The position numbers and the translations under genes are program-made. DNA of 64,000 nucleotides from a virus, in the IMG/VR virus record IMGVR_UViG_3300022217_000231, positions 1,779-65,778 of that record. One strand, given 5' to 3'. This document shows positions 41 through 48,926 of the stretch, in pieces (positions within the stretch are counted from its first letter, which is position 1; each line of letters starts with the position of its first letter). The notes beneath the pieces are model-generated. The model ran no database searches. It worked only from the letters and a program-made list of their open reading frames with translations, and had not been told where the DNA came from.

Positions 41-475
41 TTAATCTTCACCATCTTCATTAACGCTATTTATTATTTTACTTATAATTTCTTCTGAAGT
101 TGCTATCACTACTTGACTATTATTTATATGTGGATTAGTTCCAGAATCACTTCTAGGCTTAGATTCTTTTTCAGCTTTATTTAACATCATCAATGTATTT
201 AGAGCTTTATCTACTCCAGAAATCAACGTACTAACTGCTTCACTATTCCTAGGAATAGTTTCTTCTTGTTGTGCTACAATAGCTTTATCTAAGGCAGTAT
301 TAGCTTTATCTACTAGAGTTTTCAAATTAGATCGAATAAAATTAGAATCTGGTAAGTTTTCAATTGCAGTTTCAGGAAGATTATTAGAATCTTCCTCAAT
401 TATCACTAATTCTTTATCTTCATTCTTTTCTATAGGATCTACATTAAATATTTCTTCTAATCCTGATGCTTTCAT
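41..475 (-). CDS. gp16: Terminase small subunit (T4 gp16-like)
   Basis: D-x-x-F-I-R-x-N-L...AL..A.....PR..E.V..L helical core and C-terminal N-x-V-V-I-A-T-S-E-E motif resemble T4-like gp16; follows gp13-14-15 in the same transcription direction. Confidence 0.65.
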   Translation of the reverse strand: MKASGLEEIFNVDPIEKNEDKELVIIEEDSNNLPETAIENLPDSNFIRSNLKTLVDKANTALDKAIVAQQEETIPRNSEAVSTLISGVDKALNTLMMLNKAEKESKPRSDSGTNPHINNSQVVIATSEEIISKIINSVNEDGED

Positions 476-745: not shown

Positions 746-1957
746 TTAAAATAATTCTAGCCATGTTAAAGCAACTTTGACTTCAGTTGATTGATCTGAA
801 CTTGCTGTTATTACTAAATTTTCACCAGGATTAATATTAACATCAAATGGTATTGTAAAATTATCAGAAGAATTTTTGGATAATTCAAAAATAAATAATT
901 CAGTACCACCTGCACTTGTAGATACTGTAGTACCATCAATATCATATTCAGTAGTAGAGGTATTTAAATTAATATTATTATAATTAACTGGCCCGAATAC
1001 CTCAGCATTTAATAAAACTCTAAATTCAACATCTTTATTTCCTTCATTTGTTACTGATAAAAATTTTGGTTTAATTCTAACTCTATTTATTATTGAATGA
1101 TATATACTTTTATTTCTAACTGTTAAAATATTATTTTCAGTAGTAATTCCAGATTTAGTATTACTTTTAGATTTTATAAGAGATGATGCAGTATGCTCAT
1201 CTCTGCCTTCTATAAATGCCCCCATTGATGAAGTGTTCAGTTGAATATTAGTAGTATTAGTAGTATTTTCTACTTTAGCATATAATGGTAAAGTAGGATT
1301 ATGAATAGATGTATCAATATACGTATTAGCATATCGTATAGTATGAATTAATATTAATTTACCATTGATAGGATTTTCAATATAGTATTTTATTGCTCCA
1401 TACCCTAACCATTGATATCTAATTTGAAATACATTACCTTTAGTAAAATCTATTAATGGTAATACATTATTTCCATTAGCTAAATCACCGTTCCAATTAG
1501 TTTGAGGAACCCAAAATTCAGCTCCATCATGTCTCCTCAAAACTCCAAATGTTTCATCTATACATCCTACGAAAAATCCATCTAAATCATCTCCTATTCC
1601 AATTAATTGAGAAGATCCGGATATCCCAGGAGTAAATACAGCAGTAAATCTGGCTAATGCACCTTGTCCAGGATTATATTTTAAAGTTCTTTTAGATTCT
1701 AATTTAGCATAACTATTACTATTAGCACTAGTTTGTAAAATAGCTTTAGTATTAGCTTGAGTTACTATACCTGTACCAGAAGTTGAAATTGTTACCAAAT
1801 CAAGATTTATATTATATGGAAATTGTAATTGAACTCTAGGAACAGTTTCAGCTACTAGCAATTCATCAAATGCTGTTTTTTGTTGATCTTGTTCCGATAT
1901 AGCATTAAATATAGAATCTAATTTTCCTAAATTATTATTAGTATTATTTTCTGCCAC
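746..1957 (-). CDS. Putative virion structural protein (beta-rich)
   Basis: 403 aa, Thr/Asn/Ser-rich; YNPGQGALARFTAVF...G.F motif of a type common in large-phage structural genes; located in the neck operon. Confidence 0.5.
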   Translation of the reverse strand: MAENNTNNNLGKLDSIFNAISEQDQQKTAFDELLVAETVPRVQLQFPYNINLDLVTISTSGTGIVTQANTKAILQTSANSNSYAKLESKRTLKYNPGQGALARFTAVFTPGISGSSQLIGIGDDLDGFFVGCIDETFGVLRRHDGAEFWVPQTNWNGDLANGNNVLPLIDFTKGNVFQIRYQWLGYGAIKYYIENPINGKLILIHTIRYANTYIDTSIHNPTLPLYAKVENTTNTTNIQLNTSSMGAFIEGRDEHTASSLIKSKSNTKSGITTENNILTVRNKSIYHSIINRVRIKPKFLSVTNEGNKDVEFRVLLNAEVFGPVNYNNINLNTSTTEYDIDGTTVSTSAGGTELFIFELSKNSSDNFTIPFDVNINPGENLVITASSDQSTEVKVALTWLELF

Positions 1958-1968
1958 TCCTTATCTCC

Positions 1969-2199
1969 TTATTTATTAAATAAAGCTTTTGATGTATTAT
2001 AAATCCATTCAGCTTGTTTAGGAGCAAATGATTTTTCTTTTTTATAATAATTCATAATTCCATTGGCCATTTTTAGCATTTCTTTACTTTCATCATTAGA
2101 TGATTTTTTTAAAGTACCTATAATAGCTTCTAAAGTTCCTTTTGCTTTATCTATTGAATTTTCATTTAATATATTTTCTATCTTTGTTAATATGTTCAT
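1969..2199 (-). CDS. Small protein with MNILTKIENILNE leader (putative capsid-internal protein)
   Basis: Leader shared with ORFs at 9329, 11564, 12296, 12561 and 48910; late promoter immediately upstream. Confidence 0.5.
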   Translation of the reverse strand: MNILTKIENILNENSIDKAKGTLEAIIGTLKKSSNDESKEMLKMANGIMNYYKKEKSFAPKQAEWIYNTSKALFNK

Positions 2200-2218
2200 T
2201 ATTATTCCTTTTTTAAAT

Positions 2219-2226
2219 TATTTATA
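2219..2226 (-). promoter_or_regulatory. T4-type late promoter TATAAATA
   Basis: Minus strand reads TATAAATAATTTAAAAAAGGAAT upstream of ORF 2199. Confidence 0.7.
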
Positions 2227-2231
2227 AAATC

Positions 2232-2996
2232 TTATGGTATTTCCGAAATCCAAGTGTCTTCTAACACATTAAAATTACTAGGATCAGAACCACTAACAAC
2301 ATATGAATAAGTTGTTAAATGTACAGCACTAGTTTCTGGAACTAAACTACTATCATAAAATTCAGCTTTAACATTTTTAATTATAGAACTAGCTAAAATA
2401 GGACGATAAAACCAACAATCTACATCAAATGCTAATTCACATTCTATTCTTTTTATTTCTCCCTCTTCAACTTCATCTATAAAATTTGGTTCTATTGAAA
2501 CCAAATTTACTTTTATATCTCTTGTAAATTCTGGTAGAAAACTAAATTCTTGAATAGTAATTGTTTCATATGGTGTAAATTGTGGTAAAATTTGTTCTAA
2601 TATATTTTCCATTTCAGATAAACTCTTAGAAATAATAGATAAAGAGTATGATATTGTATATGGAACATGTCCAATTATTTTTTGTATACTTTCAGAAGTA
2701 CCATTAAAATATTTCATTAATGGTTGCAAATGACCACCTCTACTTTTAGTAGAATTTTTAGAGATGGCAGTAATTATAATTGACATCATAGGTAAAAATT
2801 TGTTAAAATCTGATTTAGATACTTTTGAAATACTAGATAAAAATTTACCTTTATGACCAAATACAATTGGTACTTGTCTATAATTAATAACAGTACCATC
2901 TGAATTTAATTTAGCTACTTGCAATTCATTAAATATAGATATAACTGCTATATTAATTTTACGTAATATTTGAGGAAAGAAAAATTGACGACTCAT
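2232..2996 (-). CDS. gp15: Tail terminator / sheath stabiliser (T4 gp15-like)
   Basis: F.F..I.RK...A..S.FN.L.V; VPI.FG.K.KF; LP.MS; P.PY.I.Y.L.I..K.......I.EQILP.F.P; typical gp15 pattern and synteny. Confidence 0.85.
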   Translation of the reverse strand: MSRQFFFPQILRKINIAVISIFNELQVAKLNSDGTVINYRQVPIVFGHKGKFLSSISKVSKSDFNKFLPMMSIIITAISKNSTKSRGGHLQPLMKYFNGTSESIQKIIGHVPYTISYSLSIISKSLSEMENILEQILPQFTPYETITIQEFSFLPEFTRDIKVNLVSIEPNFIDEVEEGEIKRIECELAFDVDCWFYRPILASSIIKNVKAEFYDSSLVPETSAVHLTTYSYVVSGSDPSNFNVLEDTWISEIP

Positions 2997-2997
2997 A

Positions 2998-3195
2998 TTA
3001 TTTTTCCTTTTGTATTTTTAATCTAATTGCTTCTTCTAATTTAATAGCCATATTTGTTTTTGAATGATCTGGTATAGAATTAAGATTATTTAAGGACTCA
3101 ATAAGTGACCATTTTTTCTTAAGTTTATCCTCAAAGGATTTTTCCATCTTTTTTTTAATAATTGTTGATGTACGTATATAATTTTTGAATCCCAT
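2998..3195 (-). CDS. Small hypothetical protein
   Basis: 65-aa ORF abutting gp15; KKW.LIE..N.L..I...SK..MA.KLE segment. Confidence 0.5.
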   Translation of the reverse strand: MGFKNYIRTSTIIKKKMEKSFEDKLKKKWSLIESLNNLNSIPDHSKTNMAIKLEEAIRLKIQKEK

Positions 3196-3245
3196 ATTAT
3201 CTCTTTATTTTAAATTATTTACATATTGTATAATAGAAAAACAGT

Positions 3246-3695
3246 TTAAATCTCATTTTCTATTTTATCTAGAGCTTTTCTAGTATCAATAGGATTAAAA
3301 CTATTTATTTCTCTATAAATATAGTTGCCATTAAATTTATATCCTATAGTAGTTTCTAAAATAATACCAAAATTTTTACTATTTTTTATAATATAGTGTT
3401 TTTGAGAAGTCGATAGTGGGCTATAAAATTCAAAATTTAACGAATTGCCGTATTTTTTATATCTTATGCTATTTGTTTCTTTTAAAAATTTATATAATCC
3501 TTTATCTTTATCTTTATCAATATTTAAGTCACTATTTATATCTCTATGATCTAATCCTTTAAAATTTAAAAATTTACCATTTGATAATAAAAAATTTGGA
3601 GTAGAGAATATTCTTTTAGAACTAAGACCATAAAAATTTATAGCTTTCTGTAATAAATTTTTTTTTGATTCTATTAAAAATTGTTTAAATTTCAT
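3246..3695 (-). CDS. Hypothetical protein with MKFKQFLIE leader (putative capsid-internal protein)
   Basis: Leader resembles T4 internal-protein targeting peptide MKTYQEFIAE. Confidence 0.55.
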   Translation of the reverse strand: MKFKQFLIESKKNLLQKAINFYGLSSKRIFSTPNFLLSNGKFLNFKGLDHRDINSDLNIDKDKDKGLYKFLKETNSIRYKKYGNSLNFEFYSPLSTSQKHYIIKNSKNFGIILETTIGYKFNGNYIYREINSFNPIDTRKALDKIENEI

Positions 3696-3698
3696 ATT

Positions 3699-4280
3699 TT
3701 ATTCCCAGTCACCAAATGGATCAATATCACCTGGTTTTTCTATTATAAAATCGGCAGCTGAAACTATATGACTAGTTCCATCATTAAATAGTGGATCTTC
3801 ATCTTCATAATCTTCAATTCCAATATTTGGGGTAACTTCTTCTCCTGAAATATCAGCTGGTTGAAGTAATAATTTATAAGCAAATTTATATTCTAAAAAA
3901 ACCCCTTCATCATCTTTAACATCAGCTATCTGAAATAGTCTACCTGAATAATTAAATTTAATAAAATCACCTTCGTTAGGTCTTTCATCATCACCGACAG
4001 TTTCTTCGAAATAATTCTTAGATAAAATTACTTCTGTTTCGTCGACATCTTCTATTCCAAAACGTGTTAGAATAGAAATCTCATCCATTGTAGTACCATG
4101 GACTTTCATATCATATCTAGCTGATATGAGCGGCTTGGTGTCATCCAAATATAATGAATCCTTCTCAGCATCTCTATCTACTCGCATGTAAGAAATCGAT
4201 AATCCATATAAATTTATTCTTTCATCTAATACTTTAGCAAATAAATTTCTATCTTTAGTATTTGTGATATCAAAACTCAT
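3699..4280 (-). CDS. gp14: Neck protein (T4 gp14-like)
   Basis: E.I..YG....Y..V......D.LY.DD....; RFGI...D.....LSK..F......RP.EGD.I.F......LF.I..V; C-terminal DPFG.W; lies between gp13 and gp15. Confidence 0.85.
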   Translation of the reverse strand: MSFDITNTKDRNLFAKVLDERINLYGLSISYMRVDRDAEKDSLYLDDTKPLISARYDMKVHGTTMDEISILTRFGIEDVDETEVILSKNYFEETVGDDERPNEGDFIKFNYSGRLFQIADVKDDEGVFLEYKFAYKLLLQPADISGEEVTPNIGIEDYEDEDPLFNDGTSHIVSAADFIIEKPGDIDPFGDWE

Positions 4281-4726
4281 TTAATTCCCATTAATTTGAA
4301 TAGATACTTTCTAACGTCCGTGCCATCTTCTAATTTATTAACTATAGTTTCAGGAACTATAACTCCCAAATAAATTTGATTTCTTGATGATCCTAATGTA
4401 CAATCAATAACTTTATTATTTTCAATATTCCAAGCATGTAGGGAGAAATTTATAAATTTCTCCCCTATAAGCAATCTTTCTACTACTTTCTTATCAAAAA
4501 CTACTCCAACAGATAATTTTATATTAGGGTTTTCTTTAGCTTTTTTTAAAGAATTAAGATAACATAATTGATCTATAGTTCCCTTTACTGATCCCTTTAT
4601 TTTATCAAATAATTGAAAATTTTTAGGTATAGGATACGATCCATAATTCTTATAAACTACATTCCATTTATCTATAATTTCTTTAGCAGTGAATTTATTT
4701 TCTAATAAATATTTTTTAAATCTCAA
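4277..4726 (-). CDS. Hypothetical protein with MRFKKYLLE leader; possible papain/transglutaminase-like Cys-His-Asp fold
   Basis: LCYLNS...HAWN...VIDCT spacing of a C-H-D triad. Confidence 0.45.
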   Translation of the reverse strand: MRFKKYLLENKFTAKEIIDKWNVVYKNYGSYPIPKNFQLFDKIKGSVKGTIDQLCYLNSLKKAKENPNIKLSVGVVFDKKVVERLLIGEKFINFSLHAWNIENNKVIDCTLGSSRNQIYLGVIVPETIVNKLEDGTDVRKYLFKLMGIK

Positions 4727-5226
4727 ACGTATATTACCTCAACTAAATTTTTTAATTTAACAGGACTTTTAGTATGTACTTCTGTTAAAGCATAATATTG
4801 AAAATCATTTTTATTTCCATTAATAGCTACCCAATTATCATATAAAGTTCTTTCTTTATTTAATAAATTTTCTTTTCTTTGGCCGCTAGGAATAAAATTT
4901 TTAGTAGAACTAAATTTAAAAACTAATACCACTCTTTTTCCTAATTTATCTGGATTTGGTCTTTTTTGTTTTTCAAAATTATACTCTCCTCCCATAAAGG
5001 AATATCCTTTGGCTGTATATGGATCAGGTGTTAAAAATACCTTACCATGTACTCCTAAATGATCAAATGCGACAGTTGGTTTTAGAGCTTTATCTTGTTT
5101 TATGCTATCAAATATTTTTTCTCTAGTACCATGAAATAAATATATAGGCTTATCTTCCCACCATCCAACATGGTTATATTTTTTAAGTGCTCCTGATGCT
5201 TCTTCTAAATATTCTTTAAATCTCAT
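4723..5226 (-). CDS. Putative ADP-ribosyltransferase-fold protein with MRFKEYLEE leader
   Basis: YLFHGT...I...G/K.L.P...G.VFLTPDP..A..Y...VVL.F...TEV pattern typical of HGT-type ART domains. Confidence 0.5.
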   Translation of the reverse strand: MRFKEYLEEASGALKKYNHVGWWEDKPIYLFHGTREKIFDSIKQDKALKPTVAFDHLGVHGKVFLTPDPYTAKGYSFMGGEYNFEKQKRPNPDKLGKRVVLVFKFSSTKNFIPSGQRKENLLNKERTLYDNWVAINGNKNDFQYYALTEVHTKSPVKLKNLVEVIYV

Positions 5227-5233
5227 ATATTTT

Positions 5234-5986
5234 TTATCCTACCATAAATCCCAATGGGCTAGCATATTTTTCTATTAATTCTTCATCTAATTTTTCTTTA
5301 TCTAATTTCCCTTCTTCTAAATACATGCTAGCATTTAAAGTAGAACCGTCAGGTAACGGAGTTCCTTCATATTTACCATATATTAATCCTAATGAAATTT
5401 TAGATAATGCTAAAACATATTGTTTAATCCATATTTCATTATATAAAGGAGAAGAACCTGTTCCAGGATCATATTCAGTATATATTTCTAAAACTCCAGA
5501 GTGATTTTCTGCAGGTATAGGAGTAACAGTTAAAGTATTACCATATTTATTATATTGAAGAAAAAATGAAACTGTTAATAAATTTCTAGACATTTCTACA
5601 TATTGCATACCTAATTCATATGTTGTTAACCCAGAATAACCACCTGTATCCCAAAGTAAATTATCAAAAGCACCCTGATTATATAAAATATTCATACTAG
5701 AAAATGGAGTATTAATTCCTCCAGAAGCAGTATCAGATTCAAAATTACTAACACATTTAGTTCCCGATGGTAAATTATAAGTATCAATTCCAGCTGATAA
5801 AGTTAATACATAAGCACTAGAATAGATAACATCCTCACTATATTCTGAAAACTTTTGTATGGCGGTGTCAATGTGTTGCTCTATCGCTGAATCGCTAAGC
5901 TCCACATTAACGGTATTCCCGCCTATTTCACGATATATCCAATTTACTAATTGAAGCTTAGTTGTTACATTACCAGATACTGCCAT
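5234..5986 (-). CDS. gp13: Neck protein (T4 gp13-like)
   Basis: L...I.R.IGG..VNVEL....I...ID.A...F.EY; W.K.Y.LA..K...G....KY....LP.G..LN.......EG..D...L.EEL......P.GF..G. Confidence 0.9.
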   Translation of the reverse strand: MAVSGNVTTKLQLVNWIYREIGGNTVNVELSDSAIEQHIDTAIQKFSEYSEDVIYSSAYVLTLSAGIDTYNLPSGTKCVSNFESDTASGGINTPFSSMNILYNQGAFDNLLWDTGGYSGLTTYELGMQYVEMSRNLLTVSFFLQYNKYGNTLTVTPIPAENHSGVLEIYTEYDPGTGSSPLYNEIWIKQYVLALSKISLGLIYGKYEGTPLPDGSTLNASMYLEEGKLDKEKLDEELIEKYASPLGFMVG

Positions 5987-7157
5987 TATAATATGTTACC
6001 TATCCTTTTTAATATTTCTTCCTTATTGTCTTTCCATTCATAATCGAATATTTCTATATATTCGCATCCATACTTTTCTATCATATGTTGCTTCTTAATT
6101 TGATCTCGTATATAAGTGTCCTTTAAGCTACCACCAAATGGACAAGTTTCATCTATATTATTTTCAACTAGCTGATCATATTTCTCTTTATTAATATGCC
6201 AACATGAACCATGATATTCTATAACTAAAATAATATTTTTAGTATCTTTTAGTCTAATTACGAAATCATATGCACCTGCCTTTATTTCAGGTTTATTAAT
6301 ATATTGAGTCCATTCTCTTTTATTTTTATCATTATCGTCACCATAATATAATTCATAATTCATATTTTGATCTAAATAAAAATGACTAATTATTTCTTTA
6401 ATCATATTAGTAGCTTCTTTAGATTTACCAGTCATATAATTACCATTTAATGCTCTAGTTTCAGCAGATAGATAACCTCCCTTAGTATAACTTGTTAATC
6501 CATTTTCATCTTTAATTTTTCTGGTTTTTACCATTTTTATAGTACCTATTTGAATACTATCAAGGCCATTTTCATCTATATTATTCTTTTTAGATGCTAC
6601 TACTTTATATGCTATAGTTTTACTTATTGTCATTCCGGTAACAGGATCTATATTCTTTTTAGTTTTACTAGATTTTAGCGCACCTCTTTGAAATCCATTA
6701 TTACCATTTTCATCTATATTATTTAGATTACCTTCTCTGCTTTTTTCACCACGTATTTTACTTTTACTTTTACCTGTAATTGGATCTACTTGAGACCATA
6801 ATTTACTATTATAAGCACCCATTCTTTCATAAGAATTTAACCCATTTCATCTACATCGTCTCTTTTATATTTTGTTATACATTCAGCATTGCCACAAACA
6901 GTAGAATATCCTGTTTTAAATCCATAAAAGTTTACTAAACTATCACAATATTTACATAATTGAATAGAATTTAAATTATGTACTATATGATAAATTCTTT
7001 CAGCTATAGTATGTTTTCTATCTAAATAAAAAGTTATAATATTTAAATCCTCGTATTCTTTTTTAAATCTACGTTTAAAAATAGCTGAACTATTTCTATC
7101 CCAAGGTCTTCCATCTAGATAAATTTTAATACATTCACTTAATTCTTTCCTATTCAT
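5986..7157 (-). pseudogene. Frameshifted homing endonuclease (Zn-binding N-domain, DENG/DPxTG repeats, Vsr/EDxHD-like nuclease); ORFs 6837-7157 and 5986-6822 are one gene
   Basis: C-terminal YDF.I......VIEYHGSCWH..........D..K......G...I.I...EW. Adding one A at ~6845-6847 joins the ORFs as VDENGLNSYERMG, matching the downstream IDENG/KDENG repeats. Confidence 0.65.
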
Positions 7158-7173
7158 TTGTTCTAACTCCTTA

Positions 7174-7181
7174 TATAAATA
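7174..7181 (+). promoter_or_regulatory. Late promoter TATAAATA pointing into structured-RNA copy A
   Basis: Exact octamer 6 nt upstream of the motif's P1 stem. Confidence 0.55.
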
Positions 7182-7186
7182 TTTTT

Positions 7187-7253
7187 ATAGAGGGACAGTA
7201 GGCAACTAACTCCGCCTATGATTATATGCACCCACATATAATCTTACCTCTAT
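7187..7253 (+). ncRNA. Candidate structured RNA, three-way-junction motif copy A
   Basis: P1 ATAGAGG/CCTCTAT, GA, P2 CA(g)TAGGC/GCCTATG, P3 ATTATATG/CATATAAT, CTTA. Confidence 0.6.
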
Positions 7254-7259
7254 TTTAAT

Positions 7260-7267
7260 TATTTATA
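7260..7267 (-). promoter_or_regulatory. Late promoter TATAAATA for the homing endonuclease / neck operon
   Basis: Minus strand TATAAATAATTAAAA. Confidence 0.65.
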
Positions 7268-7290
7268 TAAAGTAATTTTTAAACAAATAG

Positions 7291-7325
7291 AAAGGCCTCG
7301 TTAATTCATTTTAACGAGGCCTTTT
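7291..7325. terminator. Rho-independent, likely bidirectional terminator
   Basis: AAAGGCCTCGTTAA-ttcatt-TTAACGAGGCCTTTT perfect 14-bp hairpin with A/T tracts on both sides. Confidence 0.8.
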
Positions 7326-7532
7326 CGAATATTAAATGATTATGAATATTATCTAGAAGACAAACATTATCATAGCAATATCTAATCCAAAACCATAATA
7401 TGCCCACCATGGGGGTTAGTTATTATCTTATAACTTTCTAATGTAGAACCTAATATACCATATATAATAACTAATATAAATATTGCGATTACTTTATACA
7501 TTTTTCAATCTCCTTATTAATTTTTAATTTAT

Positions 7533-7561
7533 ATTATATAATATCATAAAACAAAAGTCAA
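7533..7561 (-). promoter_or_regulatory. sigma70-type early promoter module (copy 1)
   Basis: TTGACT-17 bp-TATAAT followed by AAGGAGATTGAAAAATG; drives a ~39-aa hydrophobic ORF (MYKVIAIFILVIIYG...). Confidence 0.8.
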
Positions 7562-7574
7562 GTAAATAATAAAA

Positions 7575-7582
7575 TATAAATA
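7575..7582 (+). promoter_or_regulatory. Late promoter for gp17
   Basis: TATAAATAATTAAAAA upstream of 7620. Confidence 0.7.
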
Positions 7583-7619
7583 ATTAAAAAGTAAGTCAAT
7601 GTAACTAAAAAAATATTAT

Positions 7620-9260
7620 ATGAATATACCAAATACCTCTCAAATAGATCCACATTCAATACCATTCAATACTCCTCTACCTGGAAGTTTAAAAGAATTA
7701 CCTAGGTGGGCGACTTATCAGGGAAATAAACTGATCAAGAAGTCAAATGTAAAAATTCAATTTGAAGAATGGCAAATTGAGGAGATAGCTAAATGTGTAA
7801 ATGATGTAACTTATTTTGTTGAAAATTTTGTATATATAATTTCTCCAGATAAAGGAAAACATTTAATTGAATTATATGATATACAATATGATTATTTAAG
7901 ACATTTAGATGATAATCGATTTAGTATTGTCATGGCAAGTAGACAAGTAGGAAAATCTACATGTTGTGCTATATATGTATTGTGGTATATTTTATTTAAA
8001 AGTCAACAAAAAGCTGTCATTATAGCTAATAAGGAAAAAATAGCCAAGGACATCTTCCAAAAGGTAAGAATTGCCTATGAGCAACTTCCAATATGGTTAC
8101 AAATAGGAGTAAAAGAATGGGCTAAAACATCTTGTGTTTTAGAAAATGGTAGTTCTTGTTCATGTGAAGCTACTACAGAAGATGGTATGCGTGGAATTAC
8201 AGGATCCTTGATAATTCTAGATGAATATGCGTTTATCAAAAAAAATATTGCCGATGAATTCTATACTAGTATGTATCCTGTCATCACTTCTAGTAAATCT
8301 TCTAAGCTTGTAATTGTAAGTACGCCCAAGGGACTGAATCATTTCCATCATATGTGGAAAGCTGCTATTAATAAAATTAGTACATTTGCTCATTTTTTAA
8401 TGTTATGGAGTCAAATACCTGGTAGAGATGAAGAGTGGAAAGAAGAAACTATAAAAAATATTGGGGAGCGTAGATGGCGTCAAGAATTTTCGTGTGAGTT
8501 TTTAGGGTCATCTAAAACTTTAATACAGCCAGAATCTTTAGAAGCATTTACCTCATTAGACCCTATAGAAACTAAATATGATGGTTATTTTAAAATATAT
8601 AAGAAACCTATTAAGAATCACCAATATGTAGTAGGTGGAGATATCGCTAAAGGCACAGGTGGCGATTACTCTACTGCACAAGTTTTAGATATAACTACAT
8701 TTCCAGTTAAACAAGTCGCTGTATATAGAAATAATACAATTGGAACTAGAGCATTTGCTAATTTGATAGTAGATATTTGTGAAATGTATAACGACTCATA
8801 TCTCATGTTAGAAAACAACGATATCGGACATGGTGTAGTTGACTTAGTTTGGCGAGATATAGAATACGAAAATCTTGTAAATTTTAGTTATGACAAAAAG
8901 AATAAAGCTGAAATAGGTATACGTTCTACTAAAAAATCTAAATCCGTAGGGTGTGATCTATTAAAAGAAATGATTGAAGAAAATAAAGTAGAAATTATAG
9001 ATGCTGACACTATATATGAGTTATCAAATTTTACAGAATTTAGGGAAGGAATTTTTAAAGCGGCAGATGGAGAACATGATGATTTAGTTATGGCTTTATT
9101 ATGGGTATTGTTCGTTTTTAAAACAGAATGGGTCGATAAAGATGAAATGTTAATAATTGAAAAGGTTGAAGAAAGAGAAGAGGAAGAACCAGTAGATCCG
9201 GTATTAGGAGATGAAGCACAAGATAAAGAAATAATGAGTTTAAATTGGACAGCAATATAA
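7620..9260 (+). CDS. gp17: Terminase large subunit (T4 gp17-like)
   Basis: Q motif (L...Q), Walker A SRQVGKST, Walker B LIILDEYAF, VSTPKG coupling motif, RNase H-like GGDIAKG.G.DYS and HDDLVMAL. Confidence 0.97.
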   Translation: MNIPNTSQIDPHSIPFNTPLPGSLKELPRWATYQGNKLIKKSNVKIQFEEWQIEEIAKCVNDVTYFVENFVYIISPDKGKHLIELYDIQYDYLRHLDDNRFSIVMASRQVGKSTCCAIYVLWYILFKSQQKAVIIANKEKIAKDIFQKVRIAYEQLPIWLQIGVKEWAKTSCVLENGSSCSCEATTEDGMRGITGSLIILDEYAFIKKNIADEFYTSMYPVITSSKSSKLVIVSTPKGLNHFHHMWKAAINKISTFAHFLMLWSQIPGRDEEWKEETIKNIGERRWRQEFSCEFLGSSKTLIQPESLEAFTSLDPIETKYDGYFKIYKKPIKNHQYVVGGDIAKGTGGDYSTAQVLDITTFPVKQVAVYRNNTIGTRAFANLIVDICEMYNDSYLMLENNDIGHGVVDLVWRDIEYENLVNFSYDKKNKAEIGIRSTKKSKSVGCDLLKEMIEENKVEIIDADTIYELSNFTEFREGIFKAADGEHDDLVMALLWVLFVFKTEWVDKDEMLIIEKVEEREEEEPVDPVLGDEAQDKEIMSLNWTAI

Positions 9261-9328
9261 AAAATTGAAAAAGTAAAAATTAATTTATATAAATAATTAA
9301 AATAAATATAAGGAGAATTTTTTATAGA

Positions 9329-9604
9329 ATGGATATATTAGATAAAATTAATGAAAAACTAAATAAGGAAGTAATTAGAGAAGGCAAGCCCAGTCATCAA
9401 ATAGAATCAAAGGATTTGATTAATTATAAATTGAAACAAATTATAGCCAGATCTATCAGTGGAGAAAAACTTAGTAAAGCATTATTTTTTAATTATAATT
9501 TTAAAGATGGTTCATTTATTACAGTAGAAAAAAATAAGAAAGAAATTGGAAGATTTAAGGAAAAAGATTCTAATAAAGCAATAGAATTATATAATTCTAT
9601 TTAG
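9329..9604 (+). CDS. Small protein with MDILDKINEKLNKEVIRE leader
   Basis: Late promoter at 9288-9295 and AAGGAG RBS; shared leader. Confidence 0.6.
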   Translation: MDILDKINEKLNKEVIREGKPSHQIESKDLINYKLKQIIARSISGEKLSKALFFNYNFKDGSFITVEKNKKEIGRFKEKDSNKAIELYNSI

Positions 9605-9814
9605 AGAAAAAGATAGATATTTATCGCATTTAAATGAAGCCCAAGATCTAAATGAATTAGGAGCTACTTGTGAATGGTTAGATGAATATCATTATAATCC
9701 TAGTAAAATAAAGAAATTATACCATGAAGGAGAACACCCAGAAGGGTGGATAAATAAAAGATTAAAAAGATAAATATAAATAATTAAAAAGAAGATTTAA
9801 AGGAGATAAATAAA

Positions 9815-11452
9815 ATGCCAGGTGTTCAACTTAGCCCAGGTGTAAAAATCACTGAGGAAGATCAAAGTACTAGAATATCGCCAGCTGCTGTTTCAATTGG
9901 TGTATATGTAGGTCGTAGCATTAAAGGTCCAGTTTGGAGTCAGACACTTGTTACAAATGAAAGGGAATTTGCAGAATTGTTCGGTGATCCAACTGATGAT
10001 AATTATGAAGATTTTTTCACAGCTGCTGGATTTTTAACTTATGGTAATACATTATATTACACAAGAGTTGTAGATGCTGCAACTGCACAAAATGCTCAAA
10101 TTGATGTTACTACAACATCTGCATCTGCGGGTACTGGAGATTATATTGCAGATTGGGAAGATTATACACCAAGTTTTGGCGGAACTGATAAATTTCAATT
10201 CTTTGCTAAATATCCAGGTGCATATGGAAATACAGAATTTAAATTAGTACTGATTAATAATACCGATTGGGCTAATATTTCTACAGTTGCAGCTGTTTCT
10301 GCGTATGAATCAGATGTTGATACTGGACCAAGCACTACAGATGAATCAGTTATTTTAGTCTATGTTAAAAATGTAGATGGTGATTATGAATACCAAGAAC
10401 AATGGTTAGTATCAGATACTGCGGGAACTAAAGATAATTTTGGTAACAATATTTACATCAATGAAAGAATTAATAGAGGGTCAAAGTATATATTAGCCTT
10501 TAATAATACTAGTACCTCAGGCGAACCTGAGTCATTTGGTCAATTATTACCAGCAGGTGGTGTAGATGGAACAGAAAATGAAAGTGATATTGTAGATGGG
10601 TATGCATTATATGATAATCCTGAAGATATATCAATTAATTATGTTATCGGTGGTAGTCATACAGTGGTAGCTACTCAAAGTAGTTTAATCACTCTAGCCG
10701 ATGTAACAAGAGCAGATTGTATAGCAATCTTAGATGTTCCAAAAACCGATGTAGTTAATATAGCTAATCAAAGCACAGCTATTAGTAATGTAGTTGATTT
10801 TAGAAAGAACGAACTAAATGCTAATGCCAAAAGAGCTGCTCTGTACGCCAATTGGCTGAACATTTACGACAAATATTCGGATGTATATAGATGGGTACCT
10901 TGCTCTGGATATGTAGCTGGTATTTATGCCCATAGTGCTAATGTAACAGATGCTTGGAGGGCACCTGCTGGGTTAAATAGAGGAATACTTAATAATATTG
11001 TTAGAGTAGCAATTAATCCTAATTTAGCACAAAGAGATACTTTATATAAAAATCAAATAAATAGTATAGTTAAATTCCCTGGACAAGGTACAGTAGTGTG
11101 GGGGCAAAAGACTTTATTATCAAAACCTTCTAGCTTTGATCGAGTGAACGTGGTGAACTTGTTTAATTATTTGGAATCTTCTATAAAAGTGAGTGCGAAA
11201 TATGTTACATTCGAACCGAATGATGATTTAACAGTTGCAATGTATAGAAATATGGTTGAACCATTCTTAGATGACGTAGTTGGTCGTAGAGGAATTGTAG
11301 AATATGTCTTAGAATTTGATAGAGATCCCGAACTTATCGAGAATAATCGATTTGTTGTTAGGCATTTTATAAAGCCAACAAAGGCTGCTGAATTTATTCA
11401 GCTAATATTTATCAGTTCGCGACAGGATGCAAATTTTAGTGAAATAGGATAA
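9815..11452 (+). CDS. gp18: Tail sheath protein (T4 gp18-like)
   Basis: SPGV...E.D.S; W.APAG.NRG; RD.LY...IN.I..FPGQG...WG.KT.......FDR.NV..LF; IKPT...EFI.L.F; late promoter at 9775. Confidence 0.97.
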   Translation: MPGVQLSPGVKITEEDQSTRISPAAVSIGVYVGRSIKGPVWSQTLVTNEREFAELFGDPTDDNYEDFFTAAGFLTYGNTLYYTRVVDAATAQNAQIDVTTTSASAGTGDYIADWEDYTPSFGGTDKFQFFAKYPGAYGNTEFKLVLINNTDWANISTVAAVSAYESDVDTGPSTTDESVILVYVKNVDGDYEYQEQWLVSDTAGTKDNFGNNIYINERINRGSKYILAFNNTSTSGEPESFGQLLPAGGVDGTENESDIVDGYALYDNPEDISINYVIGGSHTVVATQSSLITLADVTRADCIAILDVPKTDVVNIANQSTAISNVVDFRKNELNANAKRAALYANWLNIYDKYSDVYRWVPCSGYVAGIYAHSANVTDAWRAPAGLNRGILNNIVRVAINPNLAQRDTLYKNQINSIVKFPGQGTVVWGQKTLLSKPSSFDRVNVVNLFNYLESSIKVSAKYVTFEPNDDLTVAMYRNMVEPFLDDVVGRRGIVEYVLEFDRDPELIENNRFVVRHFIKPTKAAEFIQLIFISSRQDANFSEIG

Positions 11453-11462
11453 ACTTTAACTT

Positions 11463-11537
11463 ATAATTTAATAACGAGGACAGCGATTGATCCCGTTGGA
11501 ATTACTTCGTTTAATTCCTTACTCGTTATTAAATTAT
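11463..11537 (+). ncRNA. Candidate structured RNA, three-way-junction motif copy B
   Basis: P1 16-bp ATAATTTAATAACGAG/CTCGTTATTAAATTAT, GA, P2 CAGCG/CGTTG (one G-U), P3 GAATTA/TAATTC, CTTA. Confidence 0.65.
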
Positions 11538-11563
11538 TATAAATAATTAAAAAAGAGGATTTG

Positions 11564-11784
11564 ATGGATATATTAAATAAAATAGATAATATTTTAAATG
11601 AAAAATCTAAAAGACCAGAATTAAAAAAGGAAACTATGTTACTTATAGATCTGGAACTAAATATGAAGGTGAAAGTGGAATAGTTGTTAGTAAAGAAACT
11701 ACTGGTAATTATACTCTTAAAATGGATGATGGTAGTAAAATAACAGAAGTCCCTAGAGATGATTTAATTTTAAATAAAAAATAA
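11564..11784 (+). CDS. Leader-family protein with SH3/KOW-like domain reached by a -1 shift at A-AAA-AAG (11623-11629)
   Basis: 0-frame MDILNKIDNILNEKSKRPELKK stops at 11683; -1 frame KKGNYVTYRSGTKYEGESGIVV...YTLKMDDGSKITEVPRDDL stays open to 11784. Confidence 0.55.
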
Positions 11785-11801
11785 TTAAAAGAAGAATTAA
11801 T

Positions 11802-12041
11802 ATTGATATATTAAAGAAAATAGATAATATTTTAAATGAAAAATTAAAAACTATGACAGATCATGCCAATGCTATATTAGATATATATGAAAAAATGGCA
11901 GCAAAGGGGGATCCTAAATCAATAGATTTTAAAGATATGTATTTAGATTATGCGGGGTTTCACCGTTTAGTTCCTAAAGATTTAAAGGCTGAAATTAAAA
12001 AACAAGTAAAAGAAAGAAAAATTAAAGTAAGATTAAGTTAG
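11802..12041 (+). CDS. Leader-family small protein (ATT-started extension of ORF 11853-12041)
   Basis: In-frame ATT-GAT-ATA-TTA-AAG-AAA-ATA-GAT-AAT-ATT-TTA-AAT-GAA reproduces the (M)DILxKIDNILNE leader. Confidence 0.5.
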   Translation: MDILKKIDNILNEKLKTMTDHANAILDIYEKMAAKGDPKSIDFKDMYLDYAGFHRLVPKDLKAEIKKQVKERKIKVRLS

Positions 12042-12058
12042 TAATAAAAAATAAACTT

Positions 12059-12106
12059 TGGCGGGGACAGCCACTAGGTTGGGAATGCCTCCTCCCTTAC
12101 CCGTCA
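12059..12106 (+). ncRNA. Candidate structured RNA, three-way-junction motif copy C
   Basis: P1 TGGCGGG/CCCGTCA (one G-U), GA, P2 CAGC/GTTG (one G-U), P3 GGA/TCC, CTTA; GC-rich island in AT-rich DNA. Confidence 0.6.
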
Positions 12107-12118
12107 CATATAAAAAAA

Positions 12119-12295
12119 ATGAATGTACCAGGAAAAATAAAAAAGAAAAAATTAAAAAAGAATAAACCTCATAAATTAGATAAATGTAATTTAAAATTTA
12201 AAATATGTGGTGCTACTATTGATCCTGATAATATTACATTTGATATTATGATTAGTAAAAGAGGCTATGAATTTATATATAAGGAAGGAAAATAG
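12119..12295 (+). CDS. 58-aa basic hypothetical protein (not in ORF track)
   Basis: MNVPGKIKKKKLKKNKPHK...YKEGK*; stop directly abuts the ATG at 12296. Confidence 0.4.
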   Translation: MNVPGKIKKKKLKKNKPHKLDKCNLKFKICGATIDPDNITFDIMISKRGYEFIYKEGK

Positions 12296-12553
12296 ATGGA
12301 TATAATAGATAAAATTAATGAAAAATTAAATGATGAAGTAATTGAAGAAAGTAAGACTTTGAAGTTTGCGGAATTTTTAAAAAATGATGCTACTTTTTAT
12401 GAATATAAACCTATACTTCAAGCTATCATAATTGGGTTGATGAGAGGCGGGGATGCTATAGGTGGCGAAGTGAGTAAAGATATGGACAAAGCCGCTAAAA
12501 AGATAGATGAGGCCGTAACATTAATTAATAAAGCATTAGTAAAATTTAAATAA
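12296..12553 (+). CDS. Leader-family small protein (MDIIDKINEKLNDEVIEE)
   Basis: Shared leader; AAGGAAGG RBS. Confidence 0.6.
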   Translation: MDIIDKINEKLNDEVIEESKTLKFAEFLKNDATFYEYKPILQAIIIGLMRGGDAIGGEVSKDMDKAAKKIDEAVTLINKALVKFK

Positions 12554-12560
12554 GAGAAAT

Positions 12561-12806
12561 ATGAATATTATAGATAAAATTAATGATAAGTTGAATGAGG
12601 AAGTAATAGAAGAAGCATCCATTGGTAAAAATTTTGCAGGTCTTGTGGAGTTAGTGCGTAGAGCAGAAAAAATTTCAAGAAGTACGGGTGTACTATATAA
12701 TCAATTTCATAAAGAAGGCGATAAATTAAAAGAAATGGGCATATTAATAAAAGCTAATGAGTCTATTAAAAAGGCCCAAGATTTATTAAATAAAATAGGA
12801 GTTTAA
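12561..12806 (+). CDS. Leader-family small protein (MNIIDKINDKLNEEVIEE)
   Basis: Shared leader. Confidence 0.6.
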   Translation: MNIIDKINDKLNEEVIEEASIGKNFAGLVELVRRAEKISRSTGVLYNQFHKEGDKLKEMGILIKANESIKKAQDLLNKIGV

Positions 12807-12812
12807 AATATA

Positions 12813-13322
12813 ATGGCATTTTCAGTAAATGATTTTAGATCAAAAGTTAGAGATTTGGCCAAGAATTATATGTTCGAGGTGGAAATCGTGTTCCCCGTAG
12901 CTATAGGTTCATCCGATCTAGTTAACATACTAGCACAATCTACTAGTATTCCAGGTAGAACTGCAGAAGCGATAGATGCACCATTCATGTCACAACAATA
13001 TAAATTGGCAGGTGGAATTACATATGATCCATGGACAGTGACATTTAGAGTAGATGATAATTATGATATCTATAAAAAATTTAGAGCATGGTCAGAATTA
13101 ATAAAAGGAACAGAATCTAATATTGCAGCATTCCCAGCGCAATATAAGGCCCGTCCGGCAATTTTTCAGCTAGATAATTCTGGTAATAGACTTAATAAAA
13201 TTACATTGATTGGAGCATGGCCAAGTGTAGTTGCTGAAATAGCAGTCGATACTACAACTTCTGACATCCAAAATTTCGACGTTACTTTCGAAATGGATTC
13301 GAATATTTTCTCAGTAGAATAA
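12813..13322 (+). CDS. gp19: Tail tube protein (T4 gp19-like)
   Basis: F.S....LA....FEV; .Q.T.IPG......I..PF......AG...YD.WTVTF..D....I...F..W; QLD..G...K...L.G.WP..V..I..D......I..F.VTF..D. Confidence 0.93.
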   Translation: MAFSVNDFRSKVRDLAKNYMFEVEIVFPVAIGSSDLVNILAQSTSIPGRTAEAIDAPFMSQQYKLAGGITYDPWTVTFRVDDNYDIYKKFRAWSELIKGTESNIAAFPAQYKARPAIFQLDNSGNRLNKITLIGAWPSVVAEIAVDTTTSDIQNFDVTFEMDSNIFSVE

Positions 13323-13347
13323 TATAAAGGATAAAAAAAGAATATAA

Positions 13348-13566
13348 TTGAATGATGATGTGATTGAAGAAGCTAGATCAGCTAAACTAGAAATAGAATT
13401 TTATGCTGGTAACAATCCCAAAAAAGTTTTAGATTTTATATCAAATGATCTAGAAACAGTTATATTTGATAATTTTGAAACTGATATAGAAGAGTTTAAA
13501 GATACTTATCCTAAAGATACACCAAGTAAATATAAAGCTAAAATAGAAGTAATACAAATAAAATAA
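13348..13566 (+). CDS. Small protein with truncated leader (LNDDVIEE)
   Basis: TTG start; retains the 3' half of the LN.EVIEE leader. Confidence 0.45.
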   Translation: MNDDVIEEARSAKLEIEFYAGNNPKKVLDFISNDLETVIFDNFETDIEEFKDTYPKDTPSKYKAKIEVIQIK

Positions 13567-16177: not shown

Positions 16178-17275
16178 ATGCCTATACAACCAGTAACAAT
16201 TCCAAAAAATTGGGCTAAAATGTTTAATATTGATAAAGAAGAAAATATTGATAATATGTTTTTAATTTTTAGAACATATCCCGCTCCAGTTTTAGCAGTT
16301 GAAAATATAGGAAGAGATAATATGTATTCCTTCCCAGATAAGGCAAATGCTTTAGAGCAATATAATTTCTTTTATCCTAAAGATAATATTTCTGAAAAAA
16401 TAGATCACGTATATAGTGAAAACAATTCAGCTGTTATAGAATCATTAACTAGAACTAGACAGGCAATAGGTGGTAAATTAGGGGCAGCAGTACAAATAAG
16501 TACAGCAGGTAGACAAGGAGTCTTACATGAAGAACCTTTTCTATATAGTAAAACTGAAAGAAGATCTTTTTCTATAAATTTAATGTTAATTGCATATAGC
16601 GATTTAGAAGAAGATATTTATGGACCTATTAAATTTTTCAGAAATAATTCATATCCTACAAGATTAACAGGAACAGGGATTACTACTAATATTGCAGGAG
16701 GGCAAAGATTAGGTAGAATTCAAAATCCAAATATATTTAGAATTAGTGGAGGATTATTCAATACTAATCAAGTAAATGATAGTTTTTATATTCTTAATAA
16801 TATAAATGTAGATTATAATACGGATATAAAATTCCTTAAAGAAGGATACCCAATGCAAGCTATGTTAACTTTAGATTTTACTGAATTAGTTCAAATGTAT
16901 GCTGATAAATTTAGAGCAGTAGAAGCTAAAATTAATGTAAAATTAGAAGATCAAGAAGTAGTATCACAATCTTTAAGTGATGTTGTAAAAGAAAATATAC
17001 AAAATACTATTAAAAATAGTCCAATTGTTAGAGCTGCTAAAAATGCACCTACTATAATAGAGCAAGAAGTGAAAAGAAAAGTAACTGAAATGGTTAAAGA
17101 AAATCCATTATATAAACAGGTTACTAGTATTACTGATATTGATCCTAGACAAAGACTTGAAGTTGAAAAAATTACAAATAATAGTCCTTTATTTAAAAAG
17201 ATTTTAAATATTACAGATATTAAAACTAATCATAAAGAAGAAGTTGATAATATATTGAGAAAAATTAGAGGTTAA
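16178..17275 (+). CDS. Baseplate tail-tube cap (gp48-like)
   Basis: RSF.....L...S..E...I..I..FF....YP; P.IF.I; L.NI.VDY.......F....P....LTL.F.E. Confidence 0.65.
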   Translation: MPIQPVTIPKNWAKMFNIDKEENIDNMFLIFRTYPAPVLAVENIGRDNMYSFPDKANALEQYNFFYPKDNISEKIDHVYSENNSAVIESLTRTRQAIGGKLGAAVQISTAGRQGVLHEEPFLYSKTERRSFSINLMLIAYSDLEEDIYGPIKFFRNNSYPTRLTGTGITTNIAGGQRLGRIQNPNIFRISGGLFNTNQVNDSFYILNNINVDYNTDIKFLKEGYPMQAMLTLDFTELVQMYADKFRAVEAKINVKLEDQEVVSQSLSDVVKENIQNTIKNSPIVRAAKNAPTIIEQEVKRKVTEMVKENPLYKQVTSITDIDPRQRLEVEKITNNSPLFKKILNITDIKTNHKEEVDNILRKIRG

Positions 17276-48008: not shown

Positions 48009-48926
48009 ATGAAAGTATTAGTAACGGGAGGGTCAGGATTTTTAGGAAAAGCTTTACAAAAAATTAGGCCAGAGTGGATATATTTATCATCTAAAGATTG
48101 TGATCTTAGAGAAAAAAGTTGGGTATTTAGCACTTTATCTGAAATAGCTCCTGATGCAATCGTACATTTAGCAGGTAGAGTTGGTGGAATTAAAGAAAAT
48201 TCTAAAAACCAAGCTGACTTTTATTATGATAATATATCAGTGAATACTAATGTTATTCATTGTGCACATATAATGGGAATAAATAGAATATTATCTGCTT
48301 TAAGTACATGTGCTTTTCCTGATGTTGTTAATAAATATCCATTTACTGAAAAAGACATTTTAAATGGTCCTCCTGCTTTTACTAATTTATCTTATGGATT
48401 TACTAAGCGTAGTCTTTATGCAATGTCTAATGCGTATAGAAGACAATATGGTCGAAATTATTCTTGTTTTTGTCCTAGCAATATATATGGCCCAAATGAT
48501 AATTTTGATTTAGAAAGTAGTCACTTTGTTCCAGCAATGATTAGAAAATTTATAGAAGCTAAAGATGGAGATACTATAGAATTTTGGGGAACTGGGGAAC
48601 CTTTAAGACAACAATTATATGTTGAAGATTTAGCATTTTTTATACCAACTTTATTAAAGCATCATAATAGTAATATTCCAATGATTGTAGTTCCCGATGA
48701 AAATTTAAGCATACGAAAGATGGTAGAAATATGTAAAGATCTTATAGGAAAAAATGTTAAATATTTTTTTAATAACTCTTTAGATGGGCAATATAGAAAA
48801 GATGGAGATAATTCTATGTTTATGAATTTAATTCATGAGCATTTACATACTAGAGAATTATTGCCATTTAAAAAAGGGTTAGAAGAAACGATTAAATGGT
48901 ATAAGAAAAATGGACATATTAGATAA
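48009..48926 (+). CDS. fcl: GDP-L-fucose synthase
   Basis: VTGGSGFLG; HLAG.VGGI..N; STC.FP; YG..KR; P.N.YGP.DNF....SH..PA.I.K; WG.G...R. Confidence 0.92.
   Translation: MKVLVTGGSGFLGKALQKIRPEWIYLSSKDCDLREKSWVFSTLSEIAPDAIVHLAGRVGGIKENSKNQADFYYDNISVNTNVIHCAHIMGINRILSALSTCAFPDVVNKYPFTEKDILNGPPAFTNLSYGFTKRSLYAMSNAYRRQYGRNYSCFCPSNIYGPNDNFDLESSHFVPAMIRKFIEAKDGDTIEFWGTGEPLRQQLYVEDLAFFIPTLLKHHNSNIPMIVVPDENLSIRKMVEICKDLIGKNVKYFFNNSLDGQYRKDGDNSMFMNLIHEHLHTRELLPFKKGLEETIKWYKKNGHIR

Follow-up and report, generated by a model that had tools for sequence, protein, structure and literature searches.

Two leader peptides recur at the starts of small genes

We analysed a stretch of viral DNA of 64,000 nucleotides (nt), positions 1,779 to 65,778 of IMG/VR record IMGVR_UViG_3300022217_000231, which is called the window throughout and covers nearly the whole of that 65.9-kb record. 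The record is rated 31% complete, the G+C content of the window is about 26%, and the DNA comes from an uncultured T4-like phage, probably of a sediment metagenome. The window carries a family of small open reading frames (ORFs) that begin with one of two short leader peptides, here called class 1 and class 2, and continue into unrelated sequences that we call cargos. The original prediction, made from the letters of the window, had put the number of such ORFs at about 11. Six-frame regular-expression scans recovered all of them at the predicted positions, three of class 1 and eight of class 2, two of the copies being decayed (Table 1).

The class-1 motif M(K/R)FKx(F/Y)LxE occurs in the window solely at the starts of three ORFs, at 3695, 4726 and 5226 (all on the minus strand), which encode proteins of 149, 149 and 167 amino acids (aa) and are wedged among the gp13, gp14 and gp15 genes of the neck operon. 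The leader comprises nine residues beginning at the start codon and ends in L-x-E in all three cases. Judged by its N terminus, the ORF at 2998-3195 (minus strand) may be a fourth class-1-like member, and thus the twelfth tagged gene overall; its product may be targeted yet uncleaved, or the gene may be decaying.

The strict class-2 motif M(D/N)I(L/I)xKIxxxLNE was found only at 2199 (minus strand), 9329, 11564, 11802, 12296 and 12561, and looser forms begin at 48910, where LIL-EE replaces LNE, and at 13348, where just the ...LNDDVIEE half remains. Seven of the eight copies lie around the terminase, sheath and tube genes. The class-2 leader has 13 residues, extended to as many as 18 in three copies via ...EV I(E/R)E, and the ...EVIEE form of this extension supplies a second candidate cleavage site. 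Among the six copies with an intact start, three have L-N-E at residues 11-13 (2199, 11564, 12561) and the other three have I-E-E, I-R-E or L-E-E a few residues further on. The leader is acidic, with an isoelectric point (pI) of 4.1-5.1, and forms an amphipathic helix whose hydrophobic moment, for the 13-residue forms, falls in the top 2-3% of shuffles.

Two of the 11 copies are decayed, and in both the downstream ORF stays open with a new start. The leader at 11802 is 92-95% identical in DNA to that at 11564; this copy is decayed, or now produced without its leader. At 13318-13347 lies a relic of the first half of a leader, in which ATG has changed to AAT and leader position 10 is a stop codon; TTG 13348, the equivalent of leader residue L11, serves as the new start of the ORF. 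These two copies suggest that the tags can be shed. A further ORF at 12119-12295 (plus strand) encodes a leaderless, lysine-rich protein of 58 aa and contains a stretch, 12171-12201, that is 77% identical to class-2 leader DNA and may be another leader relic.

Table 1. Leader-bearing ORFs and neighbouring genes of the window
Position	Strand	Feature	Remarks
41-475	-	small terminase	
746-1957	-	virion protein	
1969-2199	-	class-2 leader MNILTKIENILNE + 63-aa basic cargo	own TATAAATA at 2219-2226 (-)
2232-2996	-	gp15-like tail sheath stabiliser	PHROG 227, E 3.4e-42
2998-3195	-	class-1-like MGFKNYIRT, 65-aa ORF without terminal Glu	between class-1 ORF at 3695 and gp15; sequence reading
3246-3695	-	class-1 leader MKFKQFLIE + 140-aa basic cargo	fold unrecognised
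3699-4280	-	gp14-like head closure protein	PHROG 679/460
4277-4726	-	class-1 leader M/L-RFKKYLLE + 140-aa basic cargo	C...HAW...D pattern; TTG start overlaps upstream gene
4723-5226	-	class-1 leader MRFKEYLEE + 158-aa basic cargo	ADP-ribosyltransferase-like fold (lead)
5234-5986	-	gp13-like head-tail adaptor	PHROG 211, E 3.8e-23; heads neck operon bearing class-1 ORFs
7620-9260	+	large terminase, gp17-like	tblastn, 40-42% identity to T4-like terminases including cyanophages
9329-9604	+	class-2 long leader MDILDKINEKLNKEVIRE + 73-aa basic cargo	TATAAATA at 9288-9295
9815-11452	+	tail sheath, gp18-like	matches sheath region of fragment L006, as do G001 and G005 counterparts
11564-11683	+	class-2 leader MDILNKIDNILNE + 26-aa tail	TATAAATA at 11538-11545
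11802-12041	+	class-2 copy, ATT replacing ATG	degraded promoter octamer; leaderless ORF from ATG 11853
12296-12553	+	class-2 long leader MDIIDKINEKLNDEVIEE + 67-aa basic cargo	
12561-12806	+	class-2 long leader MNIIDKINDKLNEEVIEE + 63-aa basic cargo	no homologue in protein collection
12813-13322	+	tail tube, gp19-like	41% identity to L028 tube (Phage_TTP_2); 59% to G005
13318-13566	+	decayed class-2 copy, acidic cargo	keeps ...NDDVIEE only
48910-49218	+	class-2 variant MDILDKINDILILEEK + 86-aa cargo	outside structural block
	+	baseplate hub protein	also on window

The leaders are constrained as peptides

As predicted, the leaders resemble one another in DNA while the sequences downstream are unrelated. 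Mean DNA identity is 74% among class-2 and 83% among class-1 leaders, compared with 39% and 32%, respectively, for the segments of equal length directly behind them, and the leaders constitute the top direct-repeat families of the region (D1-D3 and D7). When the parts behind the leaders were compared by all-against-all BLASTP, the best E value was 0.06 (in an 11-sequence database).

Three larger relatives were read whole: G001 (166.7 kb), G002 (34.3 kb) and G005 (204.1 kb, 89% complete). Both leader motifs are almost confined to ORF starts. The class-2 core was counted there three times in the window, eight times in G001, twice in G002 and 13 times in G005; a fourth match in the window, at 40620, is probably due to chance and was not included. 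The corresponding counts for class 1 are 3, 14, 0 and 7. With 20 shuffles per sequence, 0.00-0.30 N-terminal matches were expected, against 3-14 observed (two for class 2 in G002).

Class-2 leaders were compared across the window and related contigs, 31 in all. Residue L11 is invariant in all 31 yet is written with six different codons; K6 is encoded by AAA and AAG in a ratio of 14:14, I3 uses three codons, and E13 is present in 26 of the 31. Over its whole length the protein at 2199 shares 72% identity with its G005 ortholog, and in the leaders of the two M1, I3, L4, K6, I7, L11, N12 and E13 are kept whereas all five x positions differ. The retention of the motif positions together with the codon variety at L11 argues against a pure RNA-level signal or a passive duplication relic. 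Thus, constraint acts on the leader peptide and not on its DNA.

Leader genes of related phages and an S77 protease

When IMG/VR was scanned for an exact DNA pattern of the class-2 leader, 13 places were found in 11 viral contigs of 22-35% G+C, all of which local tblastn assigned to the same T4-like clade. Eleven of the 13 matches are starts of small ORFs with unrelated continuations. In eight of these 11 the L-N is followed by Glu, which the pattern does not demand, and in two of the other three ...VIEE comes shortly after. The scan of related genomes that had been proposed at the outset was borne out to the extent that both classes recur, together in G001 and G005 and as class 2 only in G002. 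A leader profile run against 1.84 billion representatives gave 7 matches at E <= 0.001, and because the motif is short such a search cannot gauge how widespread the tag is. As to cultured phages, T4 and RB43 have no class-2 motif, Melnitz has no such leaders, and the best terminase matches among cultured relatives are about 42% identical.

A protease of the Peptidase_S77 family, to which the prohead protease gp21 of T4 belongs, is encoded in each of G001, G002 and G005, and another leader-bearing fragment, L009, carries an S77 protease homologue; in both G005 and L009 a class-2 ORF abuts the protease. The gene order in G002 is portal, class-2 ORF, gp67-like, class-2 ORF, protease, homing-endonuclease-like gene, class-2 ORF with internal motif repeats, scaffold, class-2 ORF and capsid protein. 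The repeat-bearing product, a 105-aa protein encoded between protease and scaffold at 16680-16997 (minus strand), has a class-2 leader and two or three internal copies of the motif (…EKINIILNE…, …NKISRLLEKFE…), and by its sequence it looks like a small scaffold or core protein that is cut into pieces. PHROGs and Pfam searches with ten class-2 or core-position proteins of the relatives returned nothing significant.

We also used conserved flanking blocks to align T4 gp23 with six capsid proteins from the clade. At the position of the LTE/A cleavage site of gp23, five of the six have (I/L)-x-E followed by A, G or S, and two of these sites read LNE, identical to the end of class 2. By positional homology, the specificity of the protease would be conserved in the clade.

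In G005 (L042), about 25 small ORFs lie at approximately 120285-129299 between gp13 and a gene for a 408-aa virion protein. This array interleaves class-2 and class-1 leaders with forms close to the capsid targeting sequence (CTS) of T4 (MSKTFSEYIKE, MNKTFKEYLKE), which, to judge from the residues, bridge class 1 to the T4 sequence. Ten members of the array were scanned and showed no Pfam or PHROGs family above the cut-off. G001 (L022, L017, L034) carries eight class-1 ORFs between portal and protease and others elsewhere; several of those between portal and protease show a YRG...RSDR pattern. Class-1 cargos of G001 include a cytidylyltransferase-like protein and an AAA_33/Zeta-toxin-like P-loop kinase, the latter encoded directly after the tube gene. 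A protein of 456-491 aa with a class-1 leader (L028:4015-5385 and G001 124619-126094) has jumbo-phage homologues of 29-39% identity in Ralstonia phage RsoM2USA, Pseudomonas phage Lu11, Erwinia phages Alexandra and Yoloswag and Agrobacterium phage Atu_ph07.

Cargos

The cargos of nine of the 11 window members have a pI of 9.3-9.8, compared with 14% of the other window genes, and 23% of the small ones, above pI 9. Enrichment for basic cargos is repeated in G005 (62% vs 20%, p = 5e-4). PHROGs and Pfam searches with all 11 leader proteins gave nothing significant, and homologue searches with the proteins at 4277 and 12561 returned themselves alone. A fold-level lead was obtained for two of the 11 cargos, the others having no recognisable family; for the 3246-3695 protein the Atlas gave no lead.

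One of these leads concerns the 167-aa class-1 protein at 4723-5226. It has three homologues of 50-74% identity, all of which retain the class-1 leader, and one of them sits after the tail tube gene in another contig; such genes therefore move within the late structural block. In its cargo, an HGT triplet, a Tyr/Thr-rich strand and a late Glu are invariant across four homologues. Feature and structure searches of the Atlas placed it next to clusters named DarT/PARP, DUF4433, Arr and Tpt1, which are families of the ADP-ribosyltransferase (ART) fold, and template-modelling (TM) scores against the named ART clusters were 0.47-0.57. Foldseek matches of an AlphaFold2 (AF2) model of low confidence (pLDDT 51) were nearly all ARTs, among them ART toxins and Tpt1, and were weak (E >= 0.1), with no match at E <= 0.001; Pfam, PHROG and PDB profile searches also found no match for this cargo. 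Taken as a lead from modelling, the cargo may have an ART-like fold.

The second lead is the cargo at 4277-4726, in whose sequence we read a C...HAW...D pattern and for which Pfam gave no match. Its Atlas model (pTM 0.77) lies nearest to McjB C-terminal and Transglut_core clusters (TM 0.42-0.64); an AF2 model of the 149-aa protein was too poor for use (pLDDT 44). The lead points to a transglutaminase-type cysteine protease fold.

Genomic setting and promoters

The leader genes had been predicted to be inserted between late structural genes and to stand under late promoters. Their siting was supported for the neighbourhood of the neck, terminase, sheath and tube genes, while the copy at 48910, whose G005 ortholog at 49670 (minus strand) includes the leader, lies outside the structural block. 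The identity of the sheath gene follows its counterparts, and the named sheath ORF in L028 bears Phage_sheath_1; a search for related loci with the gp14-like protein alone yielded no match. The head genes (portal, protease, scaffold and capsid) are absent from the contig of the window, and neither a gp21-type S77 protease nor a gp22-type scaffold was found in its record, a fragment rated 31% complete. Because of this missing head module, protease and scaffold are known from relatives only.

The promoter claim held in part. The octamer TATAAATA lies 20-40 nt upstream of three leader ORFs only (at 2219 on the minus strand and at 9288 and 11538 on the plus strand), and the rest have none of their own. 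In this AT-rich window 42 octamers were found and 42.1 expected, so that its placement alone carries weight. Upstream of the 2199, 9329 and 11564 copies, and likewise of the terminase and sheath genes, TATAAATA is followed by a shared AATTAAAAA-GAGGA module. The late-promoter module ATATAAATAATTAAAAAG occurs in both orientations (7243-7281 / 9274-9312 and 7563-7591 / 9763-9791) and is common to the class-2 genes, the neck operon and the genes for terminase and sheath. No promoter module precedes the leaders at 12296, 12561 and 48910 or any class-1 copy, and leader genes without an octamer of their own are presumably co-transcribed with their operons.

Two ORFs occupy 5986-7157 (minus strand), between gp13 and the divergent late promoters. 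One encodes 278 aa and has internal 78-nt repeats (6508-6585 and 6646-6723) that specify NIDENG-type repeats; its C-terminal region resembles a small endonuclease, and it is probably a homing-endonuclease insertion.

Comparison with T4 and other packaging systems

The internal proteins ipII and ipIII of T4 start with MKTYQEFIAE, as read in the T4 sequences. The first ten residues of such a protein are enough for packaging, at about 300 copies per internal protein (PMC9026906; PMC3012670). Mutagenesis of the T4 CTS assigned targeting to residues 4 and 7 and processing to residues 8 and 10, gp21 cuts after L/I-x-E, and the T4 internal proteins are basic (PMC9026906). The class-1 segment FK(E/Q/K)(Y/F)L(E/I/L)E aligns with YQEFIAE in such a way that F3 and F/Y6 correspond to Y4 and F7 of T4, and all four key positions are kept in type. 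In class 2, I3/L4 and I7 stand in place of the targeting aromatics, so that class 2 is not a sequence member of the T4 CTS; here the expectation that the longer leader would not match the T4 peptide proved right.

Both systems place a short peptide at the extreme N terminus of otherwise unrelated, mostly basic proteins. Class 1 retains the aromatic-x-x-aromatic-aliphatic-x-Glu core of the CTS, both window classes end in the gp21 motif L/I-x-E, and the leader-bearing relatives encode a protease of gp21's family; one window cargo may be ART-like, in parallel with Alt, the ART that T4 packages. The two differ in scale, since 11-12 tagged genes occur in 64 kb here and 20-25 per relative genome, compared with 3-4 in T4. 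Two leader classes coexist, interleaved within one G005 array, and class 2 is longer (13-18 aa), acidic and aliphatic, often with two cleavage motifs. Unlike the separate ip loci of T4, the tagged genes lie within neck, tail and head operons. None of the cargos is homologous to a T4 internal protein, and the leaders are known from sequence alone.

The gp21-cut propeptides of T4 structural proteins offer a further comparison. In the T4 record gp24 begins with MAKINELLRE, gp22 with MLKEQLIAE and gp67 with MEGLIE, all of them, like the leaders, short and amphipathic and closing with L/I-x-E. KINEKLNE, which makes up the second half of class 2, recalls the KINELLRE of gp24, a resemblance over nine residues in a low-complexity alphabet that may be due to chance. 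These T4 proteins are structural or scaffold components, each with a propeptide of its own, and not bearers of one common tag.

In phiKZ, 201phi2-1 and SPN3US, ejection or inner-body proteins are cut by gp21-like proteases at S/A-x-E (PMC9026906, PMC7411985). These giant phages likewise package large sets of head-internal proteins whose propeptides are cut after Glu; they differ in cleavage motif, have no single conserved leader, carry much larger cargos and belong to another lineage. The anti-restriction Dar proteins of phage P1, which is of an unrelated phage family, are assembled hierarchically, via DarA and Hdf, and are not known to have a short common cleavable leader. In concept they resemble the proposal below, since N-terminal determinants send these defence-countering proteins into the head to be injected together with the DNA. 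Capsid targeting is mentioned in PMC9024508.

It has been suggested before that the CTS evolved as a means of loading a variety of proteins (PMC9026906; PMC3012670). A full-text literature search found no description of expanded or second-type CTS leaders in uncultured T4-like phages, and a review of T4-related genomes does not mention internal proteins. Class 1 would be a further member of the known T4 CTS type. The class-2 leader appears to be new and forms, along with the coexistence of both classes and the expansion to dozens of tagged genes, a variation on that type.

A proposed loading system for the phage head and its alternatives

We propose, with a probability of roughly 0.6, that the two leaders serve as propeptides which target proteins to the prohead core and are taken off by the head protease. 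For class 1 this is quite likely; for class 2 the balance tips just in favour. During prohead assembly the leaders would dock freshly synthesised proteins in the scaffolding core, and an S77 head protease of gp21 type would then clip the leaders off after the terminal L/I-x-E. The mature proteins, mostly small and basic, would stay in the head with the DNA and be available for injection into the next host, which they may affect. Class 1, with its nine residues, would be the local form of the T4 CTS, and class 2 a distinct leader, an acidic amphipathic helix that follows the same logic and is specific to this uncultured T4-like clade. The phage thus probably packs varied protein cargo into its capsid. 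The modular address tag with a payload that had originally been envisaged gains support from the match of class 1 to the T4 CTS positions, the L/I-x-E ends, the recurrence of both leaders on unrelated proteins in relatives with an S77 protease, the siting of class-2 genes in the head modules of those relatives and the (I/L)-x-E sites in the capsid proteins of the clade; on the side of the payload, a fold lead reaches two of the 11 cargos.

Several observations weigh against this proposal. The closest protease-bearing relative, G005, is 59% identical in the tube protein, and the contig of the window itself lacks the head module; its class-2 genes sit among terminase and tail genes, not head genes. 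Class 2 has aliphatic residues where aromatic ones would be expected and is unlike any targeting peptide characterised so far, and L/I-x-E is a short motif within a proteome rich in K, I, N, E and L. The basicity of the cargos is not seen in G001, where some class-1 cargos are ordinary-looking enzymes whose packaging would be unusual. Finally, the leader or its start has been lost in two copies, so that either the tag can be dispensed with or these genes are on their way out.

The chief alternative for class 2, which we consider unlikely, holds that these are small core or scaffold-accessory proteins of the prohead, functional analogues of gp67 and gp68, which would take part in building or sizing the head and would afterwards be degraded and expelled rather than delivered; the leader would still be a docking and cleavage element, with no payload behind it. 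Class-2 ORFs occupy gp67/gp68 positions beside the protease in G002, G005, G001 and L009, and the internal motif repeats of one G002 member are what a protein cleaved into many fragments would show. Scaffold proteins in the clade, too, begin with similar amphipathic segments containing L/I-x-E, and the cargos, at 26-86 aa, are very small and have no known fold. However, a single genome with eight diverse copies that are unrelated to one another, and G005 with about 13, go far beyond the needs of assembly, and most class-2 copies of the window lie outside the head module. Their cargos are basic like the retained internal proteins of T4, not acidic like T4 gp67, and their fast turnover, with homologues mostly lacking, fits an arms race better than a structural role.

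It is much less probable still that the leader is a recognition peptide for a partner other than the prohead, such as a modifying enzyme of the radical S-adenosylmethionine (radical-SAM) type, a chaperone or a cytoplasmic protease that governs stability. In systems of ribosomally synthesised and post-translationally modified peptides, common leaders serve one enzyme, which provides a precedent; radical-SAM genes are present in the window and two relatives, and some 2 kb upstream of the 48910 member is an ORF with a weak radical-SAM-like match, which at 23.7 bits stays under the cut-off. Yet in G001 and G005 tens of kb separate these genes from the leader arrays, and G002 yielded none; the leader genes belong to late structural operons and have the head protease as a neighbour, and the leader is not accompanied by the Cys-, Ser- or Thr-rich core typical of modified peptides. 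A radical-SAM recognition tag was rejected as the principal explanation because gene linkage is absent. We give the least credence to the idea that the leaders are functionless remnants of duplication or cassette recombination (promoter, ribosome-binding site and first codons) or an RNA-level translation signal. T4-type phages reportedly shuffle genes through conserved flanks, as at the T-even ip loci, and the 2199, 9329 and 11564 copies do share a TATAAATAATTAAAAA-GAGGA module together with the leader, while the leaders at 11564 and 11802, being 95% identical, hint at a duplication or gene conversion in the recent past. The promoter module is nevertheless missing from the copies at 12296, 12561 and 48910 and from all of class 1, conservation has a three-base period with freely varying x positions alongside the six codons of L11, the same peptide is kept across contigs that span the whole range of G+C content, and the Glu found in most pattern matches goes beyond what the DNA pattern requires.

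Within the proposal of prohead-core targeting, we tentatively raise, as doubtful, the further idea that class 2 is a second, independent capsid-loading code beside the T4-type CTS in the same phages. Such a leader would dock elsewhere on the prohead core, perhaps as a mimic of the helix with which the scaffold protein begins, and one phage would then load two cargo sets that differ in copy number, timing or fate. In that case the complete set of injected proteins of this clade, 20-25 per genome and for the most part basic and without homologues, could be read straight from the sequence.

Implications

If the leaders are loading tags, the packaged cargo of uncultured T4-like phages could be listed from their genomes alone. 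The second, longer tag would widen the rules of T4-type head loading, which is relevant to the use of heads as protein-delivery vehicles. In T4, IPI blocks GmrSD and IPIII is needed on some strains of E. coli (10.1101/2022.04.14.488369). Injected proteins act before any phage gene is expressed and are therefore prime candidates for first-strike inhibitors of host defence; if the leaders do load them, the products of the tagged genes would offer a manageable collection of small, relative-less proteins in which to look for anti-defence activity.

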